Shown here: positions 1 to 10,342 of the stretch, piece by piece | Layout of the letters: every line of letters begins with the position of its first letter | Numbering within the stretch: the first letter of the stretch is position 1 | Source of the DNA: Promethearchaeota archaeon | GTDB taxonomy: Archaea > Asgardarchaeota > Lokiarchaeia > Sigyniarchaeales > SOKP01 | Direction of reading: 5' to 3' | Assembly (NCBI GenBank): GCA_048941285.1 | Contig: JBHLNS010000076.1 | Location: forward strand, 1 to 10,576 | Length of the DNA stretch: 10,576 nucleotides | Notes under the pieces: model-generated | The model's database searches: none | What the model was told of the DNA's origin: nothing | Seen by the model: only the letters and a program-made list of their open reading frames with translations | Translations under genes and position numbers: made by a program

Positions 1-1141
1 TTCTTTTAAAATTTAATGGAATAGGAGCATTACATCGAGAACAGAGACCAGAAGTTCTAAGCCAATCTTTAAACTCATCCGCATGGGCAGGATATCTACA
101 ATTTGGGCATAAAATGATTCCTCTGCCATTATCTTTAGGAGACTCTGGCAGTCGAAAGCAAAAAATACATTTAAAATCTTCAATTGTCAAGTTTGCTGCT
201 CTCGGCCTATATAATTTTAAATTTATTTGCTTTTTTCTGCTTTGACTCCTCCTAATTGGTTTTCCTGTTGTACCTCTGCTTGTAGAATGAGTACTTGTTT
301 TAACTTTAGAACTTCTAGATTGTATTTGACCGCTAGGTGTTGATCTTGATGATTGAGACAAACTTCTTGAAGTACGAGTTACAGTTCTTGTTGAAGGTGT
401 TGAACCTATTCTTGTTGTAGTACGAACAGTTTGCCTTCGGCTACTAGGAGCGGATCGTGTTGTTGGTGTTGCTAGTTGATTTAACCTATTAGTTCGTTGT
501 GTTACGTAATCTCGGGTCAATTGAGGTAATTGAGTTCTTGATCCAAAAAAACCAAGCACAATCATTATTAGTATGGTGCAAATAAGAAATATTAGAAGAT
601 TAAGATCTATTAGAAAGTGGAGAGGGACTAAAACAGTATCATAAAGATCAACAAATGAATAAAAACTAACCCAATAAATTACAATAAAAAGTACAATTGA
701 AATGCACAGAAAATAACCAAAAGTACGTGCTTTTACTGATTTTGTACCAAAATATATTACACTATACTTTTTGAAACACCGATATAAAGAAATTGAACTA
801 TATAGGACGTAGGGAAATCCGAATAGAATGGTCCACCAACTTAAATATAAACTGGATCCTTCTAAAAGATTTTCGCCTAATAAACCTGTGAAATTACCCC
901 AAATTGAGTAAAAAATTCCCATAAAAACAGGACCAATTGTAAAGAATGCGGTGTTATGAGGAGAATTAAACTCACGATATTGTTTGATATTTTTTATAAC
1001 TTTAATAGAATAGATTAACCAAATCCCAATTAACAACCAACTTGCAAAAACATTAAAGGAATTTAGTATAACTCCATGTATAATACCGATCACCATAAAT
1101 ATTACCAATGTAATTGCTATGGATTTAATCTTAGCTTTCGT
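1..1141 (-). CDS. Multi-pass membrane protein (about 6 TM) with a Ser/Thr/Arg-rich linker and a C-terminal variant RING finger; putative membrane E3 ligase. 3' end is truncated by the window edge. Start is uncertain: ACG 1141, TTG 1108 or ATG 1096.
   Basis: Not in the ORF track. Manual translation gives a frame open from 1144 to the window edge. Hydrophobic segments: SIAITLVIFMVIGIIHGVIL, VFASWLLIGIWLIYSI, AFFTIGPVFMGIFYSIWG, LYLSWWTILFGFPYVLYSSISLY, FGYFLCISIVLFIVIYWVSFY, LNLLIFLICTILIMIVLGFFG. These are followed by a low-complexity S/T/R linker and then CIFC-x16-CPNC-x4-H-ADE-FKDWLRTSGL-CSRC (nt 169 to 32). The gene lies directly downstream of E1, E2 and JAMM. Confidence 0.88.
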
Positions 1142-1167: not shown

Positions 1168-1980
1168 TTAATCTTCATCATATTCAAGGTAAACGGCTTT
1201 TCCTTCAATAATAGGATTCATAAATTTAAGTATTTCTGGTAACATTTTTACATCTAAAGATCCTTTAATCCCATAAACCAAAGGATACCATGTTTTAGAT
1301 TTAAAATCAGCTTTATATATCTCAAATCCAGTAGATTTACCATCAATTTGATAAGGATCAATAACAAGAGCTACAGCTTTATCCCATAATTTTTGATATC
1401 TTGCTTGAGTTCCCAGATCTTCATTAGACATAAAACAACCATATGATGGATGCGAATGATACCATCCACAGATAAACAATTTGTGTCTTTTAATATCTTT
1501 AAAAGCTCTTACATAATTTTTATAATCTTTAATCTCTGCATAAACTGCTGTACCATGTCCCATTGGATAAGAATCTTCAATGTGGATTACATTATTTTCA
1601 TCTATTTTTCCCGCAAGAAGTCCTATAACCTCCACCCAACTTTCTTTTGGAATTTTAGAATTAGCATATTTAAGTGCGTGACTAGCTATTTTAAGAATTG
1701 CTTTTACTGAAATATAGATTTCCTTTTGAATTTCCTCTACTTTTTGAGTTTCAGCTATTTTATTTTCTATAATATTAGCTGTAGGTATCTTTGTAAGTTT
1801 TATAGTTGGTTTATTAGAAGATTTTAGGGTAATCATTGAAGATATTTCCTCAGTTAATTCATCTTCTTCTAACTGCAGTTCTTCACAAATTTCATCAATT
1901 AATTCTTGTTTTATTTTTTCTTTTATCTTCCGTTTAATTACATCCTTGATCGAATTACTCGCTAGGTCTTTTTCTTCCAT
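1168..1980 (-). CDS. JAMM/MPN+ metalloprotease (Rpn11/CSN5-like deconjugating enzyme) with an N-terminal charged extension
   Basis: Has EVIGLLAG (catalytic Glu), GWYHSHPSYGCFMSNEDLGTQ (intact HxH-x7-S-x2-D) and AVALVIDP. Start moved from 1995 to ATG 1980 because GGTGAT (1993-1988, overlapping the E2 stop) is positioned as its SD. Confidence 0.95.
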   Translation of the reverse strand: MEEKDLASNSIKDVIKRKIKEKIKQELIDEICEELQLEEDELTEEISSMITLKSSNKPTIKLTKIPTANIIENKIAETQKVEEIQKEIYISVKAILKIASHALKYANSKIPKESWVEVIGLLAGKIDENNVIHIEDSYPMGHGTAVYAEIKDYKNYVRAFKDIKRHKLFICGWYHSHPSYGCFMSNEDLGTQARYQKLWDKAVALVIDPYQIDGKSTGFEIYKADFKSKTWYPLVYGIKGSLDVKMLPEILKFMNPIIEGKAVYLEYDED

Positions 1981-1988
1981 TAAAAAAA

Positions 1989-2516
1989 TCACCATTTTTT
2001 ATTTGCATACTTTTTAACAAGATTTTTTACCTTTTTCTCAAAAAATTTTTGGTTTTTCATCATTTCGATTGCTGCTTTTTTATTAAAAACATCTGTTGGA
2101 TTAACATATTTACCTCGCGTGTTTAACATAGCAATTATCGCTTGAACGACGGTAACGGCGGTCTTTGATGGGCTCCACCCGCCTTTTTTCCCAACTAATG
2201 AGGGATCTACTAAAGCTAGGCAAATATTTCTTTGTCCTTTATATTCTGATGGTTTTGGCCAAAAATTTGGATGCCAAATTGGAGTATGCATTCTTACAAA
2301 AGGAGGTTGTTTTGGATATTGAGCAGGGAATCTCAATTCTAATCTAAAAAGACCACCTGCATAAGCAGTACCTTTAGGACCTTGAAACGAAATTGCCAAA
2401 TGATCAATACTCTTCCTTTTTGGATTAAATGGTTTTAATTGAACGAGACTACCTTCTTTAAGCATTTTTTTTAAACCCGCAAAATCTCGGGTAATACGAC
2501 TACTTCTTATACTCAT
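1989..2516 (-). CDS. Ubiquitin-conjugating enzyme E2 (UBC fold)
   Basis: GPKGTAYAGGLF, FPAQYPKQPP, TPIWHPN, catalytic Cys99 in NICL, WSPS and the C-terminal helix KNLVKKYA are all UBC hallmarks. Confidence 0.96.
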   Translation of the reverse strand: MSIRSSRITRDFAGLKKMLKEGSLVQLKPFNPKRKSIDHLAISFQGPKGTAYAGGLFRLELRFPAQYPKQPPFVRMHTPIWHPNFWPKPSEYKGQRNICLALVDPSLVGKKGGWSPSKTAVTVVQAIIAMLNTRGKYVNPTDVFNKKAAIEMMKNQKFFEKKVKNLVKKYANKKW

Positions 2517-2595: not shown

Positions 2596-3855
2596 TTAAA
2601 ACTTTATTTGGTTCAAATTCTTTTTTAATTTTAAGGTTACAAAAATTTCTCCACCTAAAAACCCCGCAACTGTCATAAATTCATAATTTCTTAAACCATT
2701 TTCAATAGAATTCTTATCTAAATCAACCATCTTAACATCATTAAAATCTAGTAATGTAAGAATTGGTTCAGACTCCGGATCCAATTTAAATCCATTTTTA
2801 GCTAAAATTTTAATAATGTTTATACAAGGTGATTTGGAATTCAATTTTATAGATACTCTACGTACTTTTTTACCACATTGGGAACATTCTGGATTCCTCG
2901 ATTTTTCAATGTGATAAAATTTCATTGTAATGGAATTAAAGATTACATATGTCTTAATTGGTTCTCCTACTCCTTTAAGACCCGCCTTAAAATGAAGTAT
3001 TTTTATTACTTCATGTGATTGTAAGGCAGAAATAACAGCATTTATTGTTATTATACCTGGATCGTGTCGATCGATTATTTTCACAATATCATCTTGAGTA
3101 TATTCAGGTAAGAAATTGTGTTTGTTTACTAATTCATTTGCAACCTTTTGAATAAAATTAATATCATTTATATCTTTTGGATTTGGATCTCGATCAAATT
3201 TTTCTTTAAAGGCCATATCTCCTTTAAAAACACAATGTATTCTTTTTCGAGGAACACCGACTACAGTGCAAGCAGCCATCTCATCGCTTTCTCCTACAGG
3301 TAACGGATTGCATTCATAACAGGCATTTTTATAAGGAAATATTGTATATATATGACCATGATAACCGGATACTCCTCCATCAACAAGGGGTTTCTTAAAT
3401 CGAATGCACTGAGCATTTAAATTCAAACGAGCATTCATCGAATCTAGGCCTCCAACAATAACATCAGCAGCTAAATATATTGCTGGATTTAATCGTTCTA
3501 AAGAAGTGTGATATCCATTAATAATAATATTAGGATTAATTTCTTTTAATTTCCTTGCAGCAACAACTGCCTTAGGCTCTCCTATCTTCGCATCAGTAAA
3601 AAGAATTTGACGATTCAAGTTTGAATGTTCAATAATATCTAAATCAACAAGATCTAATTGCCCAACACCAAGCATTGCTAGATTTTTAGCTATTTCACAA
3701 CCTAAGCCTCCAACACCAACTATTAACACTCTTGAGTTCTTCACTAATTTCTGAGACCATCCCTCCAAACGAAATTGGCGATCATATAGCTCTCGCTCTT
3801 CTGTTGATAAATCTTTTGCGAAAAAATCTGAATCCTTATCCAATTTTATCACCAT
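2596..3855 (-). CDS. Ubiquitin-like activating enzyme E1 (ThiF/MoeB adenylation domain, catalytic-Cys domain, probable C-terminal UFD), UBA3/UBA2-type
   Basis: Has YDRQ, GVGGLG, DLDIIEHSNLNRQ, Zn ligands CYEC and CSQC, catalytic Cys196 in AACTVVGVPRKRIHC, and PGIITINAVISALQSHEVIK. About 90 further residues follow the second CxxC. The true start may be TTG at 3843 (GGTGAT-AAAA-TTG). Confidence 0.95.
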   Translation of the reverse strand: MVIKLDKDSDFFAKDLSTEERELYDRQFRLEGWSQKLVKNSRVLIVGVGGLGCEIAKNLAMLGVGQLDLVDLDIIEHSNLNRQILFTDAKIGEPKAVVAARKLKEINPNIIINGYHTSLERLNPAIYLAADVIVGGLDSMNARLNLNAQCIRFKKPLVDGGVSGYHGHIYTIFPYKNACYECNPLPVGESDEMAACTVVGVPRKRIHCVFKGDMAFKEKFDRDPNPKDINDINFIQKVANELVNKHNFLPEYTQDDIVKIIDRHDPGIITINAVISALQSHEVIKILHFKAGLKGVGEPIKTYVIFNSITMKFYHIEKSRNPECSQCGKKVRRVSIKLNSKSPCINIIKILAKNGFKLDPESEPILTLLDFNDVKMVDLDKNSIENGLRNYEFMTVAGFLGGEIFVTLKLKKNLNQIKF

Positions 3856-3935: not shown

Positions 3936-4268
3936 TTATCCCGCTGTACTTGCAGGGATTAAAAGAATATCATCGCCGTCGTTTACACCATATTCTCTTA
4001 AAGAACTATTTTCATCCATCGTAACTCCACCAGATGATAAATGAAAGTCATTGGGATCAAGGCCGTATAAATTTCCTAATGTTTCCTTAATATCACTTAC
4101 ACGATTACTATCATTTACTGTAAGTTTCTCCTTCTTTTCACCTGGACCAATTGTTGACATGAAGTATAAAGTTAATTTCTTTCCACCTGAAGGGGTTTTA
4201 GAGGCGGGAGTTTTAGATTTTACCGGTTCTCTTCCACCTAATTCTTCATCAAATTCATCAAAACTCAT
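3936..4268 (-). CDS. Ubiquitin-like (beta-grasp) modifier Ubl-1 with an N-terminal extension, ending in single-Gly -PASTAG
   Basis: Ubiquitin-fold pattern: LTV..S..VSDIKE.L....GLDP.DF.L..GG..MDE...L.EYGV.DGD.I.L. First gene of the E1/E2/JAMM/RING operon. SD-like GAAGTGAT lies 4 nt before the ATG. Confidence 0.92.
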   Translation of the reverse strand: MSFDEFDEELGGREPVKSKTPASKTPSGGKKLTLYFMSTIGPGEKKEKLTVNDSNRVSDIKETLGNLYGLDPNDFHLSSGGVTMDENSSLREYGVNDGDDILLIPASTAG

Positions 4269-4541: not shown

Positions 4542-5213
4542 ATGAGTTCTCTGGATAATGCAGAATCTGTTGTTCTTGAATTAGTAGAGGAGTATTTGGC
4601 AAAAAAGACTTTCTTCTCAATTAGAGAAATTGTCTCATATATAAGTAATAGAGTTAGATACAATCCTAATATAAATGAAAATAGAATAGAATTAGTCTTA
4701 AAGAATTTAATCAAAAGACGTGTTATTTTTCCCGGAACACGATTAATGAAGAATAATATTATTGAACACCCAATAAGAAATGAGATCTTTAACTATATTA
4801 AAAAGAATCCCTCTAATATTAATGAAATCATGAGAGCTTTAAATATTGGTAGCAATCAAGCATTATGGCATTTGTCATGTCTGGAGAAATTTAAATTCAT
4901 AAGATCAAAACAAATTAACAATCATAAATTATTTTTCAAATTTGATTCTAATCCAAAACTCGATTCATTATTTTATTATCTGAACAAAAAAATTGTTCAA
5001 GAAATTATAAACTTTATAAAAAACAAAAATAAAGCATTTAAAATTACAGAGATAGCAACTGGTTTAAGAAAAAATCATAGTACTATTAAAAAATATTTAG
5101 ATATTCTAATAGATCTAGAATTAATAATAATTCAGAAAGAAAATAATAGAATTACATTCAAAATAGATTTGGATAAATATTCTAAAGCTCAAAAATCAAT
5201 AGAAGGTGTGTAA
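4542..5213 (+). CDS. Tandem winged helix-turn-helix protein, putative transcriptional regulator (archaeal COG3398-like)
   Basis: Two ArsR/MarR-like wHTH units, RNEIFNYIKKNP..INEIMRALNIGSNQALWHLSCLEK and QEIINFI...FKITEIATGLRKNHSTIKKYLDILIDLELI, plus a probable degenerate N-terminal wHTH. Confidence 0.8.
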   Translation: MSSLDNAESVVLELVEEYLAKKTFFSIREIVSYISNRVRYNPNINENRIELVLKNLIKRRVIFPGTRLMKNNIIEHPIRNEIFNYIKKNPSNINEIMRALNIGSNQALWHLSCLEKFKFIRSKQINNHKLFFKFDSNPKLDSLFYYLNKKIVQEIINFIKNKNKAFKITEIATGLRKNHSTIKKYLDILIDLELIIIQKENNRITFKIDLDKYSKAQKSIEGV

Positions 5214-5298: not shown

Positions 5299-6093
5299 AT
5301 GAAAAAGAATAATAAAATTTTAACCGTTATTGCTCTTTACACTGTTTGTATCTTGTTTTATGTAATTTTTTTCCTATTTCATATACAAAATACTACGATT
5401 TTCCTTTTTTTAACAATTGGTAGTGTCGCGGTATTATCAACTAGTACTATTTACACAGTTATACAGTCTAAAAGTAGTCCAGGTATGACTATAAAAGAAA
5501 AAAAGTCTTTTATAAAACCAAAATCGATTCAAATTGATACTAACGATATAATTGAAGATTATATTGATGTTATGCCTTCAATAGAATCTTATATCGATTC
5601 AGATGAGTCTTATAAAGATATGCCAATAATTGACAAATATATCTTTTCAATTTTTAGTAAGGAAGAATTAGATAAGATAAATCTTTTAGATTTACCAAAA
5701 ATGGATAAGATAATATTTATCAGAGAAATGCTATATTACGATCCAAATGAAAGAAAGAATTTAATCGAAAATATGTTGAAAAGTAGGGATAAAGCCGTTG
5801 AAATAATAAAATATTCACCACCTAGCAATCAAATTGAATTGGAAGACCAGATTCGAGTTTATGTTAGATCATTACTAGAACCCGGTGAAAAAACTAAAAT
5901 AATTATTATTGATACGAGTGATCTAATTGGAATAACAAAGGAAAAAATTGGAGTATTATTTGATTATGATCTAGAAGATTTTCTTTTATCTAGTGGTGGG
6001 ATATTGCTAAAAGACAATTTACTAATAAAAGATTATGATATCGATGATGATGATGAGATCGCTCTAATCCCTTCTAGAAAAAGCATAAATTAA
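5299..6093 (+). CDS. Membrane-anchored protein (2 N-terminal TM helices) with a C-terminal ubiquitin-like domain paralogous to Ubl-1 and Ubl-2, lacking a terminal Gly
   Basis: TM segments ILTVIALYTVCILFYVIFFLF and TIFLFLTIGSVAVLSTSTIYTVI. The C-terminal domain (5845-6093) shares S..[GE]PGEK, KE....LF, DF.LSSGG, Y...D.D.I.LIP with the free Ubls and ends IPSRKSIN. Confidence 0.88.
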   Translation: MKKNNKILTVIALYTVCILFYVIFFLFHIQNTTIFLFLTIGSVAVLSTSTIYTVIQSKSSPGMTIKEKKSFIKPKSIQIDTNDIIEDYIDVMPSIESYIDSDESYKDMPIIDKYIFSIFSKEELDKINLLDLPKMDKIIFIREMLYYDPNERKNLIENMLKSRDKAVEIIKYSPPSNQIELEDQIRVYVRSLLEPGEKTKIIIIDTSDLIGITKEKIGVLFDYDLEDFLLSSGGILLKDNLLIKDYDIDDDDEIALIPSRKSIN

Positions 6094-6110: not shown

Positions 6111-6548
6111 TTAACCAGCAATACTAGCTGGAATTAAAAGTATGTCATCTCCATCAGAAACATTGTAGTAGCTTAATGTATTAGTTTCTTCCATGGTTAC
6201 ACCACCAGATGATAAATAGAAGTCAGCAGGATCTAAACCAAATAAATTAGCAACAGTTTCTTTTATATCTCCGACTAAATTCCCATTATTAACAGTTAGC
6301 TTTTGCTTTTTTTCACCTGGGCCAATAGTGGACATAAAAAATACCGAAATCTTCTTCCCACTAGTAACAAGAGGTGTAGAAGGAGTTTTAGATTCAACTT
6401 CATGCTCGGGAACCTTTACTGAAGGCTCTTCTTTCTTATCCTCATATTTCTCTTCAAATTCTTCATCTAAATCTTCTAAATCTTCATCAAATTCTTGTTC
6501 GTCAAACTCTTCATCAAACTCATCATTAAACTCTTCATCAAAACCCAT
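6111..6548 (-). CDS. Ubiquitin-like modifier paralog Ubl-2 with a long acidic N-terminal tail, ending -PASIAG
   Basis: The core is 59/82 identical to Ubl-1 by hand alignment. SD-like GAGGT lies upstream of the ATG. Confidence 0.92.
   Translation of the reverse strand: MGFDEEFNDEFDEEFDEQEFDEDLEDLDEEFEEKYEDKKEEPSVKVPEHEVESKTPSTPLVTSGKKISVFFMSTIGPGEKKQKLTVNNGNLVGDIKETVANLFGLDPADFYLSSGGVTMEETNTLSYYNVSDGDDILLIPASIAG
6450..6542 (-). repeat. Degenerate, mostly 12-bp coding tandem repeat (TTTGATGAAGAR) encoding FDEE units
   Basis: Encodes FDEE-FNDE-FDEE-FDEQE-FDED-LED-LDEE-FEE; aaactcttcatc-like units recur on the + strand. Confidence 0.75.
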
Positions 6549-6753: not shown

Positions 6754-7911
6754 ATGAATGATAAACCAATTCCCAAATATCAAATTCGAGAAAAAACTCC
6801 AGATGAAGAATTAGATATCATTACAGATAAAAAATTATTAAAAAAGATAAAAAAAGAAAGAATAAAATTGGACAAAGAAAAAAGTGAATGGGAAAAGGTA
6901 ATTAATCAAATTCAAGACTACAAAGAAAATGTTGAGGATCTCGAAAAAAAACGAAAAGAAAAAGAACTTAAAATTAAATCTCTTCTTGAACAAAGAGATA
7001 AATTAAAAGATGAGTTAGAAAGAACGAAGAATCAAATAGAGCAACAAAAAAATGAAATAAATGTTAAAGAACGACAATTTAAAGAAAAGATCCAAACTAA
7101 AAATGAAGACTTAAATCAAAAAAATAAAGAATTAGAAAGATTTCAAGAAAAATTAGATAAATTGAGAGAAGATATTTCTAATCAAAAAAAGAATTTAGTT
7201 TGGGAAAAGGAAAGGACAGAAAAACGAATAAAAGAAATTAAAACAAAAATTCCTGGCATGGAGAGAAGAGAAAGTGCATTAGAAAGAACTATTAATGATT
7301 TAGAAAACAAATTAATGGACTTAAGAAATGAAGTTAAAAATTTAACTAGAGAAAGGGATAATCTAACTAAGGAAGTTAACAACTTAAAAAGAGAGATTAA
7401 TGATGAGAAAAATCGTTTTTCTGATGAAAAGCAAAAACTTAAAGAAGAACGAGAAAAAACTCGTTTTAAAAAACAAGATTTAGATTTAAGAACTCGTGAA
7501 CTTGATAAAAAAAAAGCAGATCTAAAAAAATATAGAGATAAAGTAGAAAATGATGTAAATGATTTAGAGAAAAAAAGACGCCAACAAGAAGCAAGATTGA
7601 AAGAATTAGAAAGAAAAGTACCTGCATTAGAAAATAGATATCACTCTTTAAATCACAAAATTCCGAATTTAGAAGAAAAATTCTCCAGATTAAATAATGA
7701 ATATAAACAATTAGAAAAAGAAAAAACGAAATTAGAAAGCGAAAAAAGTCTTATCAAACGTGAAAGAGAAAAACTTGAAAAAGATAAACAAAGATTTTCA
7801 CGAGAAAAAAGAGATTTTGAAACAGAATTAAAAAAAATCAAATCCAAAACTCCAACAATTAAAGCAAAGACTCCTTCGCATATCAAAACTAAAACACCCT
7901 CTAAATATTAA
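6754..7911 (+). CDS. Long coiled-coil protein with a C-terminal KTP-repeat tail
   Basis: About 335 aa of K/E/R/L-rich heptads with no Walker motifs or TM segment. Tail is IKSKTPT-IKAKTPSH-IKTKTPSKY. Confidence 0.85.
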   Translation: MNDKPIPKYQIREKTPDEELDIITDKKLLKKIKKERIKLDKEKSEWEKVINQIQDYKENVEDLEKKRKEKELKIKSLLEQRDKLKDELERTKNQIEQQKNEINVKERQFKEKIQTKNEDLNQKNKELERFQEKLDKLREDISNQKKNLVWEKERTEKRIKEIKTKIPGMERRESALERTINDLENKLMDLRNEVKNLTRERDNLTKEVNNLKREINDEKNRFSDEKQKLKEEREKTRFKKQDLDLRTRELDKKKADLKKYRDKVENDVNDLEKKRRQQEARLKELERKVPALENRYHSLNHKIPNLEEKFSRLNNEYKQLEKEKTKLESEKSLIKREREKLEKDKQRFSREKRDFETELKKIKSKTPTIKAKTPSHIKTKTPSKY

Positions 7912-7922
7912 TTAATATTAAT

Positions 7923-8972
7923 GTGAAATTGATGAGGATTGTTAATTCAATTGAAGGAGATTATATAGAAACAAAAAAAGATAATTTGATTTTTGATGTA
8001 AAAGGGCTTCTCCATCCAAAAGATTATATTATTTGTTTTCTAAGATTTTATCCTCATCCGGAGGGAGAACGAATAAAAAATGGTATAAAATTCAAAAAAA
8101 TCTACAAATTAAACGAACGATATGATCTTTTAAGAAAAAATTATCCAAAATATCTTCTGTTTTCTAAAGAATTAGATTTAGAAATACAAGGTGTTAAAAA
8201 CTATGATATAAAAAAAATTTATAAACCTAAGATCTTTTTTAACGACTTATTAGAAAAAAATCAATTATCTAGTGTTGAAGATTGTGCAAAAAAATTATGT
8301 GAATTATTTATTAATGAGGGAAATCTTTCTAAGAATTCAATTGGAATCACTGGATCACTTATGGCTGGATTAAATACTGATGATTCAGATATTGATTTAA
8401 TAATATATGGCACAGAAGCAAGTATGAAATTTCAAGAGAAATTGGTTAATATATTTGAAAAGCCAAATAATTGTCGCAAATATACTATGAATGAATATAG
8501 ATCCCATTATCAATGGAGAGTTGGCGGTTCTGATATTCTATTTGAAGATTTTCTTAAAACTGAACAAAGAAAGCAACATCAAGGGAAATTTATGAATCGT
8601 GATTTTTTTATTAGATATATTAAAAGTCCTAAAGATTGGAAAGGGAATTTCTATGACTATCAGTTTACAAATTATGGCAGGATAAGACTTAAAGCTACCA
8701 TATTAAATTCAAAAGATTCAATTTTCACTCCTTGTACTTATAAAATAAAATCGTTTAAAGTTCTCGAAAGAAGTATTAAATCAAAAAAAGTTAATTTACA
8801 AAACATAAATGAAATCTGCTCATTTAGAGGTCGTTTTTGTGAGCAAGCAAAAGATGGAGAAATAGTGTTAGTAGAAGGAAAACTAGAAAAAGTTAATTTT
8901 CAAAATACTGGAGAATATTTTAGAATATTATTAACTAATCAAATAAAAGATAAATTGCTCATTATAAATTGA
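7923..8972 (+). CDS. Predicted nucleotidyltransferase, Pol-beta superfamily (archaeal COG1665-like), with a probable C-terminal OB-like domain
   Basis: GITGSLMAGLNTDDSDIDLIIYG gives the GS-x-DxD motif. N-terminal EGD.IE....IFDVKG..HP.....FLRFYP and C-terminal SFRGRFCEQA..GE...VEGKLEKV are typical of this archaeal family. Start is GTG 7923 or ATG 7932. Confidence 0.85.
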   Translation: MKLMRIVNSIEGDYIETKKDNLIFDVKGLLHPKDYIICFLRFYPHPEGERIKNGIKFKKIYKLNERYDLLRKNYPKYLLFSKELDLEIQGVKNYDIKKIYKPKIFFNDLLEKNQLSSVEDCAKKLCELFINEGNLSKNSIGITGSLMAGLNTDDSDIDLIIYGTEASMKFQEKLVNIFEKPNNCRKYTMNEYRSHYQWRVGGSDILFEDFLKTEQRKQHQGKFMNRDFFIRYIKSPKDWKGNFYDYQFTNYGRIRLKATILNSKDSIFTPCTYKIKSFKVLERSIKSKKVNLQNINEICSFRGRFCEQAKDGEIVLVEGKLEKVNFQNTGEYFRILLTNQIKDKLLIIN

Positions 8973-9031: not shown

Positions 9032-10342
9032 ATGGATATTTTTAACGCTGATCTGCATATTCATAGTCCTCATTCTATTGCAGTATCGAAATCATTGAAC
9101 TTAGATACGATGTTGGAGACTTGTAAGAAGAAAGGTTTAAATATTCTTGGAACTGGTGATATCTTACAACCTGAATGGTTAAAATATATGGAGCATAATT
9201 TAGAAAAGCAAAGTGATGGCTCATATTCATATAAAGACATTTTTTTTATCCTTCAGACGGAATTGGAAGATATAGAAAGCATACATCATTTAGTTTTATT
9301 CCCTGATTTCAAATCAGTTAAAGAAACTCAGATTAAGTTAACACGACATTCTAAAAATATTTTGGATGGATGGGGGGGAAGACCTAGGGTGAACTTATCA
9401 CCTCCTGCCTTAGTCGACACAATTTCAGATTCTGGTGGCATAATTGGCCCTGCTCATGCTTTTACTCCCTTTAAAGCAATTTTTCGACAAGGTAAATTTC
9501 AATCTTTAGAGGATTGCTACAAAGGAGTTAGTAAGAAAATAAGTTTTATCGAATTAGGTCTTTCTGCCAATTCTGATCTAGCAGATCGGCTAGAGTCATT
9601 AAAAGATGTGTCATTTCTAAGCAATAGTGACGCTCATTCACAAGATCCACGTTCTTTGGGACGAGAATTTAACAGATTTGATATCGATAACCCTTCCTTT
9701 AATGAAATTTTGCTTGCTCTGCAGAGAAGAAATGGAAGAAAGATAACTCTTAATGTAGGATTGCACCCTAAGCTTGGTAAATATTACAATATGTTTTGTA
9801 ATAAATGTAGGAGAAGAATTTTATTTAAGAAAGTGAAGAAAAATAGGAATGCGATCTTTAACCAATATTCGATAACTGAGAATTTTGTAATATTTTATTC
9901 TAATGATCCATACACTTCAAGATTGGATTATTTAGACCAAGTTTCTAAAAATAAGATGAATTGTCCAGCGTGTAAAGAACAAAGTAACAAAAATTTTAAA
10001 GTTAAATTAGGAGTAAGTGAAAGGATTGAAAAAATTTCTACATTTAAAGAAATTAAACATCCAGATCATAGGCCTCCTTATATCAATGCCGTACCGTTAA
10101 TTGACATAATTCGAGCAGTAAAAGGTATTAAAAGTACATCCAGTAAAACGGTTTTAAATGAATATAATAGAATAATTCAGGAACTAGGGACTGAATTTGA
10201 GATACTGATTGATATTCCGATTACTAAGATTGAAGATTTTGATGATAATACAGCCCTGATTATAAATGCTATTAGAAACAATGAGGTTGAGTACACTCCC
10301 GGTGGAGGAGGTAAATATGGCCAAATAAGATTTGATATTTAA
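9032..10342 (+). CDS. endoQ: Endonuclease Q family protein (PHP domain plus Zn ribbon; TIGR00375/COG1379)
   Basis: Has ADLHIHS, GTGD, HHLVLFP, GRP, PAHAFTP, ELGLSA, NSDAHS, LGRE, LGKY, CNKC...CPAC, GVSERI, HRPPY and PGGGGKYG. Confidence 0.9.
   Translation: MDIFNADLHIHSPHSIAVSKSLNLDTMLETCKKKGLNILGTGDILQPEWLKYMEHNLEKQSDGSYSYKDIFFILQTELEDIESIHHLVLFPDFKSVKETQIKLTRHSKNILDGWGGRPRVNLSPPALVDTISDSGGIIGPAHAFTPFKAIFRQGKFQSLEDCYKGVSKKISFIELGLSANSDLADRLESLKDVSFLSNSDAHSQDPRSLGREFNRFDIDNPSFNEILLALQRRNGRKITLNVGLHPKLGKYYNMFCNKCRRRILFKKVKKNRNAIFNQYSITENFVIFYSNDPYTSRLDYLDQVSKNKMNCPACKEQSNKNFKVKLGVSERIEKISTFKEIKHPDHRPPYINAVPLIDIIRAVKGIKSTSSKTVLNEYNRIIQELGTEFEILIDIPITKIEDFDDNTALIINAIRNNEVEYTPGGGGKYGQIRFDI

Follow-up and report, generated by a model that had tools for sequence, protein, structure and literature searches.

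The DNA considered here, called the window, is an entire contig (C41, JBHLNS010000076.1; 10,576 bases) from the genome of a Promethearchaeota archaeon (assembly GCA_048941285.1; 3.55 Mb, 94% complete), and its cluster of 11 genes includes two free ubiquitin-like proteins (Ubls), Ubl1 and Ubl2, whose last two residues are alanine and glycine. Sequence and gene order make it probable that Ubl1, Ubl2, and a further free paralog that this genome encodes on contig C65 are conjugatable modifiers of the ubiquitin family in Loki-type Asgard archaea, with Ala-Gly as their reactive end, and that they are trimmed by the Rpn11-like JAMM metalloprotease encoded near Ubl1. Ubl1 is most probably a relative of ubiquitin and not of UFM1 or SAMP, and the Ala-Gly end is a trait of its family, invariant down to ~40% identity.

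Conservation of the Ala-Gly Terminus

Read directly on the minus strand, positions 3936..3950 encode Ser-Thr-Ala-Gly-TAA, and the C65 copy likewise ends in IPASTAG; Ubl2 is 67% identical to Ubl1 over 95 residues. An earlier reading of the window made from the sequence alone (the sequence-only reading) had held that the Ala-Gly-stop of the two free paralogs is not an error, which is borne out by the DNA, both open reading frames (ORFs), the third copy, and the relatives. A word-indexed search gave 872 relatives at E ≤ 0.001, and the counts made from it refer to the 120 listed (83–94% identical), which carry deposited names of ubiquitin-like proteins of Promethearchaeota, Loki-, Thor-, Odin-, Hermod-, and Hodarchaeota. 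Ala-Gly are the last residues in 113 of these 120 relatives, and the other 7 have 2–4 residues beyond them. Similarly, 258 related loci emerged from a pattern scan across genomes of species representatives, and in the best 80, several of which are cut by contig ends, the stop codon directly follows Ala-Gly in 109 of 131 Ubl ORFs, with tails of 1–7 residues in the other 22. When cluster representatives were searched exhaustively, 210 proteins matched at E ≤ 0.001; of the 150 listed, 40 carry the motif [ILVM]P-x-[ST]-x-A-G at most 10 residues from the end (for instance, as IPHSTAG, IPSSTAG, IPVSTAG, or IPSSRAG), and 17 of the 40 end exactly at Ala-Gly while the rest carry tails of 1–6 residues. 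The remaining 110 listed representatives are mostly long multi-repeat proteins (19–31% identity), fragments, or membrane-anchored proteins of an IPSRK… type.

The only invariant positions in an alignment of 22 diverse family members with 37–93% identity (alignment A2) are M1, L70, G81, L102, I104, P105, A109, and G110, and the terminal glycine, on whose conservation the sequence-only reading had made its proposal depend, is therefore kept throughout this range. An invariant Ala-Gly, with residues beyond it that are variable or absent, is what marks a reactive end exposed by processing. In addition, tandem genes occur in the family (P0121 with three complete units and P0122 with two), in which each unit has its own N-terminal tail and ends in IP[HF]S[TQ]AG. 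These two genes resemble polyubiquitin, except that full N-terminal tails separate the units.

The same conservation bears on the idea that Ubl1 is a non-covalent adaptor of the HUB1/UBL5 kind, which is never conjugated and whose Ala-Gly end is of structural importance only. A membrane-anchored paralog without a reactive end, encoded in the window, would suit such a role, but the terminal Ala-Gly is invariant while the following residues vary or are absent, the motif closes each tandem unit, and the gene is tightly linked to an E1, an E2, and an isopeptidase-type JAMM, which leaves the adaptor with little probability.

The genome also encodes a separate Gly-Gly system on contig C40, where a JAB gene, a ThiF gene, and an E2-like gene accompany an 87-residue Ubl that ends in Gly-Gly plus three residues, and a second Ubl copy 11 kb away ends in Gly-Gly-stop. 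The presence of this system means that the Ala-Gly end is specific to the Ubl1 family and not a habit of the organism. Ras-like GTPase genes adjoin the Ubl genes of the C40 system (L110 2045..4291; L008 1471..1725). On contig C68 (L003 1447..1704), an 85-codon open frame with a Pfam ubiquitin match of 36.7 bits ends in Gly-Gly plus one residue and has no in-frame ATG, GTG, or TTG start. No description of an Ala-Gly end in an Asgard Ubl was found in the full-text literature searched, the coverage of which leaves out subscription journals and preprint supplements.

Relationship of Ubl1 to Ubiquitin

The Pfam ubiquitin model (PF00240) matches Ubl1 with 29.6 bits against a cut-off of 25.4, and a Rad60-SLD match (PF11976; 20.1 bits, below the cut-off of 23.8) overlaps this stronger match. 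Across the 22 family members, with matches counted at E ≤ 10, ubiquitin is found in 22 (best E 6.9e-9), Rad60-SLD in 17 (best E 3.3e-5), and ThiS (PF02597) in 1 (E 0.013), and neither Ufm1 (PF03671; 0/22) nor Urm1 is found in any. Searches of PDB chains with the single sequence and with a profile gave, among the best 60 matches listed, only ubiquitin-type proteins, including ubiquitin, ISG15, ubiquilins, FAT10, HUB1, Rad23, NEDD8, and Caldiarchaeum ubiquitin. The ESM Atlas neighbours of Ubl1 are ubiquitin/Rad60-SLD clusters of Promethearchaeota, Nitrososphaerota, and Bathyarchaeota, plus UBL5.

The AlphaFold model of Ubl1 has a confident beta-grasp core from about residue 29, preceded by a tail in which residues 1–24 have a predicted local distance difference test score (pLDDT) below 50; the range 3936..4185 singled out by the sequence-only reading spans this core. 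Its top Foldseek match is the ubiquitin of Caldiarchaeum subterraneum (6fno_D, E 1.4e-7; 6fj7 and 6fnn_C are also matched), followed by ubiquitin variants, SUMO1, ISG15, NEDD8, and HUB1, and its best match by VIA is the ISG15 C-domain. Chains of UFM1, URM1, SAMP, MoaD, or ThiS are absent from the ~50 matches listed for each structure search (Foldseek and VIA among them), although such chains may match at lower Z. The sequence-only reading had described Ubl1 as intermediate between ubiquitin, UFM1, and SAMP/MoaD and had proposed profile searches and structure prediction as checks of an affinity to UFM1. Neither check favours UFM1: the Ufm1 model finds no member, and the structural matches listed are headed by ubiquitin, ISG15, NEDD8, SUMO, and Caldiarchaeum ubiquitin. 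With ubiquitin in every member and ThiS in a single one, the intermediate position is not supported.

Residue-level claims of the same reading fared better. The HMMER alignment joins Ubl1 residues 48–100 to ubiquitin 14–66 without gaps, such that ubiquitin position p corresponds to Ubl1 position p+34, and the same register carried to the end places A109 at G75 and G110 at G76. The ubiquitin residues I44, K48, K63, H68, and V70 become S78, V82, D97, L102, and I104, in agreement with the earlier assignment of Ser, Val, and Asp to the Ile44, Lys48, and Lys63 equivalents, and the segment SLREYGVNDGD, described as ubiquitin-like, indeed aligns to the 54–66 region of ubiquitin. The equivalents of Lys29, Lys33, and Lys6 (the last outside the aligned stretch) are Thr, Leu, and Ile, and lysine is kept only at the K11-like (K45/K46) and K27-like (K61) positions, with the K27 and D52 positions represented in the family by the invariant K61 and E86. 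In the model, residues 32..107 align to ubiquitin 1..73, and the first hairpin, which has an invariant loop (TIGPGEKK) in the Ubl1 family, is ~3 residues longer than that of ubiquitin. The features by which ubiquitin proper is recognized in eukaryotes, namely a C-terminal Gly-Gly, the Ile44 patch, and Lys48/Lys63, are all absent from Ubl1. Since Ile44, Lys48, and Lys63 are replaced by Ser, Val, and Asp, Ubl1 is not a canonical K48-chain tag, as the sequence-only reading had also concluded with regard to proteasomal targeting, and neither its readers nor the topology of any chains can be those of ubiquitin in eukaryotes.

Putative Conjugation Enzymes Linked to Ubl1

The five minus-strand genes for the RING-like membrane protein, the JAMM, the E2, the E1, and Ubl1 (Table 1) bring together the parts of a conjugation system, with a cysteine in the E1, HPN and a cysteine in the UBC-type E2, a JAMM of the isopeptidase type, and a candidate E3 gene. 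Over residues 35–341, the E1 matches Uba1 (134.9 bits), SAE2 (133.5 bits), and UBA3 (133.2 bits) in the PDB, and scores are lower for MoeB (122.7 bits), ThiF (94 bits), and UBA5 (60.2 bits). Its Cys196 lies in an inserted region and is aligned to the P-x-C-T cysteine of Uba1, SAE2, and UBA3, which is their catalytic cysteine; two CxxC pairs (179, 324), CYEC and CSQC, correspond in the alignment to CxxC pairs in SAE2 and UBA3, and a C-terminal extension is also present. The E2 contains HPN82-84 and Cys99 and matches 277 E2 sequences of the PDB. Judged by these sequence features, the E1 and E2 of the cluster are of the ubiquitin/NEDD8/SUMO type and not of the UBA5/UFC1 type. The JAMM has the motif residues E122, H180, H182, S190, and D193 (Glu, His-x-His, Ser, Asp), and its PDB matches include Rpn11 (64.9 bits), the Rpn11-like protein of Caldiarchaeum (60.7 bits), and CSN5 (55.9 bits). 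The C-terminal domain of the membrane protein at 2..1108 has a putative RING/U-box-like fold by structure comparison, with Z below 8.

In the proposed pathway, the JAMM would cut after Gly wherever extra residues or tandem units follow Ala-Gly and thereby expose Gly110, which the E1 would adenylate before taking the Ubl onto Cys196. The Ubl would then move to Cys99 of the neighbouring UBC-type E2, and the membrane-anchored RING/U-box-like protein would help its transfer to target lysines, probably at the membrane, with the JAMM also removing the modifier from targets. Sequence features, conservation across the family, fold class, enzyme types, and gene order were observed; each of these biochemical steps, and which E1 and E2 serve Ubl1, we infer.

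Several points weigh against conjugation of Ubl1 by these enzymes. Gly75 substitutions in ubiquitin impair the action of E1 and deubiquitinases, so that activity of an Ala-Gly end with an E1 of canonical type is not a matter of course. The putative pairing of Ubl1 with the cluster E1 and E2 is drawn from their adjacency, in a genome where ThiF-family genes number five and E2-like genes at least three. The assignment of the membrane RING/U-box-like protein as an E3 is weak, as its candidate domain has no Pfam RING match and no Foldseek match at E ≤ 0.001. In addition, 24 of the 80 related loci are stand-alone Ubl copies without enzymes. Another E2 and a 530-residue E1 with a large insertion are encoded on contig C61 (L109 3915..10922) beside a 1343-residue MIT/TPR protein, and no Ubl gene was identified adjoining this pair.

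The composition of the cluster also bears on a role of Ubl1 as a sulfur carrier, or as a dual-function protein of the SAMP/Urm1/MoaD type, which would work with a MoeB-like E1 in cofactor synthesis or tRNA thiolation. An Ile-Pro ahead of the tail and an acidic turn, Gly-Asp-Asp, are reminiscent of MoaD and ThiS C-termini, the one ThiS match among the 22 members points in the same direction, and the adenylation domain of the E1 scores well with MoeB and has NCBIfam MoeB/ThiF matches below cut-offs. Against these likenesses, the E1 has the catalytic-Cys insertion aligned to Uba1, SAE2, and UBA3, a UBC-type E2, a JAMM, and a RING/U-box-like protein are syntenic, and a Pfam scan found no rhodanese or cofactor-synthesis gene in the cluster. 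Furthermore, ubiquitin outnumbers ThiS among the members by 22 to 1, their end is Ala-Gly and not Gly-Gly, and long disordered N-terminal tails, tandem units, and fusions to large proteins are ill-suited to a small sulfur carrier, for which only a very slight chance is left.

Organization and Distribution of the Gene Cluster

The gene order of related loci is that of the window, and the Ubl match in the 80 best loci is 77–95% identical across species representatives. GC content across the window is ~24–33%. The features of the window are collected in Table 1 with the number of related loci in which a homolog of each enzyme or neighbor lies beside the Ubl.

Table 1. Features of the window, with the occurrence of homologs beside the Ubl gene in the 80 related loci
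Feature	Position	Strand	Basis or remark	Loci with homolog beside Ubl	Identity to window protein
Multi-pass membrane protein with C-terminal Cys-rich RING/U-box-like domain (candidate E3)	2..1108	-	3' end cut by contig end	45/80	48–84%
JAMM/MPN+ metalloprotease, Rpn11-like	1168..1995	-	Pfam JAB 65.2 bits	47/80	61–91%
E2, 175 residues, UBC fold	1989..2516	-	Pfam UQ_con 86.2 bits	52/80	84–96%
E1, 419 residues, ThiF adenylation domain	2596..3855	-	Pfam ThiF 206.7 bits	56/80	76–90%
Ubl1, free ubiquitin-family modifier (putative), 110 residues, ends IPASTAG-stop	3936..4268	-	ORF		
Ala109-Gly110-TAA, single-Gly C-terminus of Ubl1	3936..3944	-	DNA read directly; A109/G110 unchanged throughout alignments A1 and A2		
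Disordered N-terminal tail of Ubl1, residues 1–29	4182..4268	-	pLDDT <50 for residues 1–24		
Acidic-aromatic motif F3..L10 in Ubl1 tail	4239..4262	-	F3, E5, F6, D7, L10 invariant in alignment A1		
Two SKTP motifs, K17..P26, in Ubl1 tail	4191..4220	-	S18, K19, T20, P21 invariant in alignment A1		
Double winged-helix (ArsR-type) protein, possible regulator, between cluster halves	4542..5213	+	Pfam HTH_5 and other winged-helix families	53/80	
Membrane-anchored protein with C-terminal Ubl domain	5299..6093	+	Pfam ubiquitin at residues 189–256; hydropathy scan	51/80	
Ubl2, second free paralog, 145 residues, long acidic N-terminal extension, ends IPASIAG-stop	6111..6548	-	ORF; Pfam ubiquitin 26.2 bits		
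Coiled-coil protein	6754..7911	+	Coiled-coil Pfam/NCBIfam matches, below cut-offs	47/80	
Nucleotidyltransferase-like gene	7923..8972		Neighbor of Ubl cluster	45/80	
PHP-type TIGR00375-like gene	9032..10342		270.8 bits, below cut-off of 326.6	41/80	

The nucleotidyltransferase-like and PHP-type genes may belong to the Ubl system. A full Asgard-type cluster was also found at locus L084 in a record labelled as a Nanopelagicaceae bacterium, probably through mis-binning of the contig.

Searching genomes with P0121 as the only query, to which the following counts apply, gave the family in 194 of 400 genomes from the phylum. The Ala-Gly Ubl occurs in 52/53 genomes of the genus and 119/134 of the family to which the window belongs, and in other families in 25/31 (f13), 9/12 (f15), 19/22 (f16), and 2/2 (f17) genomes; it was not found in families f18–f27 or three further families (0/89). 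In family f16, paralogs of the IPHSTAG and IPVSTAG types sit side by side as separate genes, and this query found only such adjacent paralogs and no fused tandem form there.

Spread and synteny also speak to a role in defence against viruses, as a module like those of bacterial Bil/CBASS systems, in which Ubl, E1, E2, and JAB are combined. The four component types are identical, and the E1 adenylation domain matches PADLOC models of CBASS E1-E2 proteins with up to 60 bits, but PADLOC matches are absent for the Ubl, the E2, and the JAMM. The near-universal presence in the genus and family, the fixed neighbourhood in the 56 of 80 loci holding the E1, and the 77–96% identity of Ubl and E2 are likewise at odds with defence islands, which are far more variable, and a defence module is barely credible.

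The UFM1 Question

Mature UFM1 ends in a single Gly after a non-Gly residue, and such a residue before the terminal Gly is the sole UFM1-like trait that remains for Ubl1. The sequence-only reading had connected the protein with the origin of UFM1, which is not supported in view of the failure of the Ufm1 model on all 22 members and of partner enzymes that are not of the UBA5/UFC1 type. In a six-frame scan of the own genome, the Ufm1 model gave two weak matches (12.4 and 11.9 bits), none of them on the window contig, and across the phylum 0 of 400 genomes had a match over the cut-off. A UFC1 match was not found in the own genome either, with a UFC1 model that matched no control genome.

A UFL1-like protein is nevertheless encoded in the genome, as a 790-residue frame on contig C66 (~66857..67741; L111-L114) that matches E3_UFM1_ligase (PF09743) with 58 bits, above the cut-off, and also matches DDRGK repeats. 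Its presence agrees with the published view that UFL1 and DDRGK1 are older than UFM1 and originated in Asgard archaea (PMC10183829). A UFL1-like gene is encoded in 141 of the 400 genomes, and its distribution diverges from that of the Ala-Gly Ubl: it is absent from families f15 (0/12), f16 (0/22), and f17 (0/2), where the Ubl is common, and present in both genomes of family f6, which lack the Ubl (0/2). As the genomes are related and not independent, this mismatch is a weak argument against a functional tie.

The caution in the sequence-only reading that UFM1-like proteins had already been reported from Asgard archaea was justified. Ufm1 homologues were found there by structural search in nine clades, with some hits partial or multi-region, and the accessible part of this report is silent on the terminal glycine and on enzymes (PMC12962969, 2026). 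Its supplement, as far as accessible, lists one Loki protein that matches residues 1-84 of mosquito UFM1 and, separately, a ubiquitin cluster (cog.001299) with a Loki protein whose best match is the ISG15 C-domain (PMC12962969). Because the ISG15 C-domain is also the best VIA match of the Ubl1 model, we think, on the basis of predicted structures, that the Ubl1 family is of the cog.001299, ISG15-matching kind and not of the UFM1-matching kind of that supplement (PMC12962969).

Taken as a UFM1-like or proto-UFM1 modifier, placed between ubiquitin, UFM1, and SAMP/MoaD, Ubl1 could serve an Asgard UFL1-like ligase. Its single Gly after a non-Gly residue, a genome with a UFL1-like protein yet without Pfam-detectable Ufm1 or UFC1, the early origin of UFL1 and DDRGK1 in Asgard archaea (PMC10183829), and the partial or multi-region Ufm1 hits, which would also suit tandem and fused Ubl forms (PMC12962969), all fit this possibility. 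It nonetheless has very little probability in view of the negative Ufm1 searches, an E1 with 133–135 bits to Uba1, SAE2, and UBA3 against 60 to UBA5, an E2 with HPN, the location of the UFL1-like gene on a different contig, its diverging distribution (f15, f16, f17, and f6), and the separation of the UFM1-matching Loki protein from cog.001299 in the accessible supplement, together with the ISG15 C-domain as the best VIA match of Ubl1 (PMC12962969).

N-Terminal Tails, Membrane Partner, and Fusion Proteins

The N-terminal tails of the Ubls carry one or two [ST]-K-T-P motifs, and [ST]K[TVIM]P occurs upstream of the core in all 120 close relatives listed and in 118 of 128 locus ORFs. The coiled-coil protein of the window has three K-x-K-T-P motifs of the kind seen in the Ubl tail at its own C-terminal end (7831..7908), and one to three copies of K[ST]KTP lie within the last 40 residues of 40 of its 47 homologs. 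The motif is rare in the genome, whose crudely made six-frame ORF set contains K[ST]KTP 5 times where 1.5 are expected, and 4 of the 5 are in Ubl or coiled-coil proteins. The motif K-[ST]-K-T-P common to the Ubl and coiled-coil tails might reflect a shared reader or acceptor consensus. The tail also carries an acidic-aromatic motif, [DE]-F-[DE]-[DE]-[FL]-[DE], which is kept from 93% to ~40% identity (alignments A1 and A2) and resembles, by analogy, short linear motifs that bind Ubl grooves.

The membrane-anchored Ubl protein (5299..6093) has two hydrophobic segments and a Ubl domain that is 33% identical to Ubl1 (E 3e-12), and it has no Ala-Gly end (…IPSRKSIN), its relatives ending in IPSRK…. 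It may be a membrane-tethered, non-conjugatable partner of the system. In its boldest form, the proposal would be a separate Asgard membrane modifier pathway, with K-[ST]-K-T-P as a consensus for acceptor lysines or for E2/E3 docking, the coiled-coil protein as a built-in substrate, chains formed on the N-terminal tail in the manner of SUMO2/3, and a role as a pre-eukaryotic module resembling endoplasmic-reticulum-associated degradation (ERAD) or serving membrane remodelling. The ERAD-like or membrane-remodelling role would follow from the combination of a multi-pass RING/U-box-like ligase with a membrane-anchored Ubl-domain protein, and this extended form is, on balance, unlikely.

The Ala-Gly Ubl also occurs as the C-terminal domain of larger proteins (P0138, P0151, P0126-P0132), among them a HerA-like ATPase and a protein with CDC48_N and VWA domains, and another recurrent fusion consists of a CxxC-containing N-domain, a coiled coil, and an acidic linker, followed by the Ala-Gly Ubl. 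Whole proteins might be conjugated through the C-terminal Ubl end of such fusions. A further candidate, P0123 (an F420-oxidoreductase N-terminus with a Ubl), may be a gene-call chimera and was left out of the evidence.

Significance and Comparison with Known Systems

Asgard ubiquitin systems are used to infer the origin of eukaryotic ubiquitylation, and a Gly-Gly end is taken as given in the accessible text of one such study (bioRxiv 10.1101/2023.07.25.550441). The Ubl1 family is multi-copy, with a conservation reminiscent of ubiquitin itself, yet it combines Ala-Gly with an E1 and E2 of canonical type in a genome that also has a Gly-Gly system. If Ubl1 is conjugated, the E1 and JAMM enzymes would have to discriminate between two tails in one cell, which would provide a natural test bed for tail specificity, and archaea would possess tandem "poly-Ubl" genes as well as fusions with a Ubl at the C-terminus. 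Proteomics that looks for the standard di-Gly remnant would, in that case, miss all conjugates; Arg91 is the last basic residue of Ubl1, and trypsin would therefore leave a remnant of 19 residues. In archaeal Urm1, a basic residue has been introduced close to the terminus (PMC12625751).

Among known modifiers, UFM1 shares with Ubl1 a single Gly after a non-Gly residue, the removal, presumed for Ubl1, of a precursor tail, and a UFL1-like gene, which lies elsewhere in the genome. Ubl1 differs in having no Ufm1 model match, an E1 that is not UBA5-like, an E2 with HPN, and a JAMM metalloprotease as the presumed trimming enzyme, where UFM1 is trimmed by a UFSP-type cysteine protease. SUMO2/3 is similar in its disordered N-terminal tail before the ubiquitin fold, in the Rad60-SLD matches of 17/22 members, and in the SUMO structures among the fold matches, and the lysine-containing tail motif of Ubl1 could, by analogy, act like a SUMO chain site. 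The SUMO consensus is unlike K-[ST]-K-T-P, Ubl1 ends in Ala-Gly, and its own Rad60-SLD match is below the cut-off.

Eukaryotic ubiquitin, NEDD8, and the ISG15 C-domain resemble Ubl1 in the Pfam ubiquitin match, the gapless correspondence to ubiquitin 14–76, and the E1 of canonical type with a UBC-type E2, and Ubl1 departs from eukaryotic ubiquitin by Ala in place of Gly75, a longer first hairpin, and a 29-residue N-terminal tail. The ubiquitin encoded in an operon with genes of the endosomal sorting machinery ESCRT in Helarchaeia is likewise an Asgard ubiquitin with an E1, an E2, and a RING-type partner. According to the accessible text, this system was reconstituted in vitro with E1, E2, RING E3, and a precursor with a short C-terminal tail (bioRxiv 10.1101/2023.07.25.550441). 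The Ubl1 system differs from it in the Ala-Gly end, in a window cluster where a Pfam scan found no ESCRT gene, and in the separate Gly-Gly system of the genome.

Compared with Caldiarchaeum ubiquitin, to which it is only 21–23% identical, Ubl1 has Ala-Gly in place of a Gly-Gly end. The operon of Caldiarchaeum subterraneum (ubiquitin, E1, E2, a small RING protein, and an Rpn11-like protein; PDB 6fj7, 6fnn, and 6fno) likewise unites these five types of component in a single cluster. This operon is described in the accessible texts of PMC5654768 and PMC6043591, the latter of which also reports trimming of the ubiquitin precursor by the JAMM enzyme (PMC5654768; PMC6043591). Beyond the Caldiarchaeum system, the Ubl1 family has a conserved disordered N-terminal tail with two motifs, several paralogs per genome, and tandem and fused forms, and in its cluster the RING-like protein has a multi-pass membrane anchor and a partner with a Ubl domain is also anchored in the membrane.

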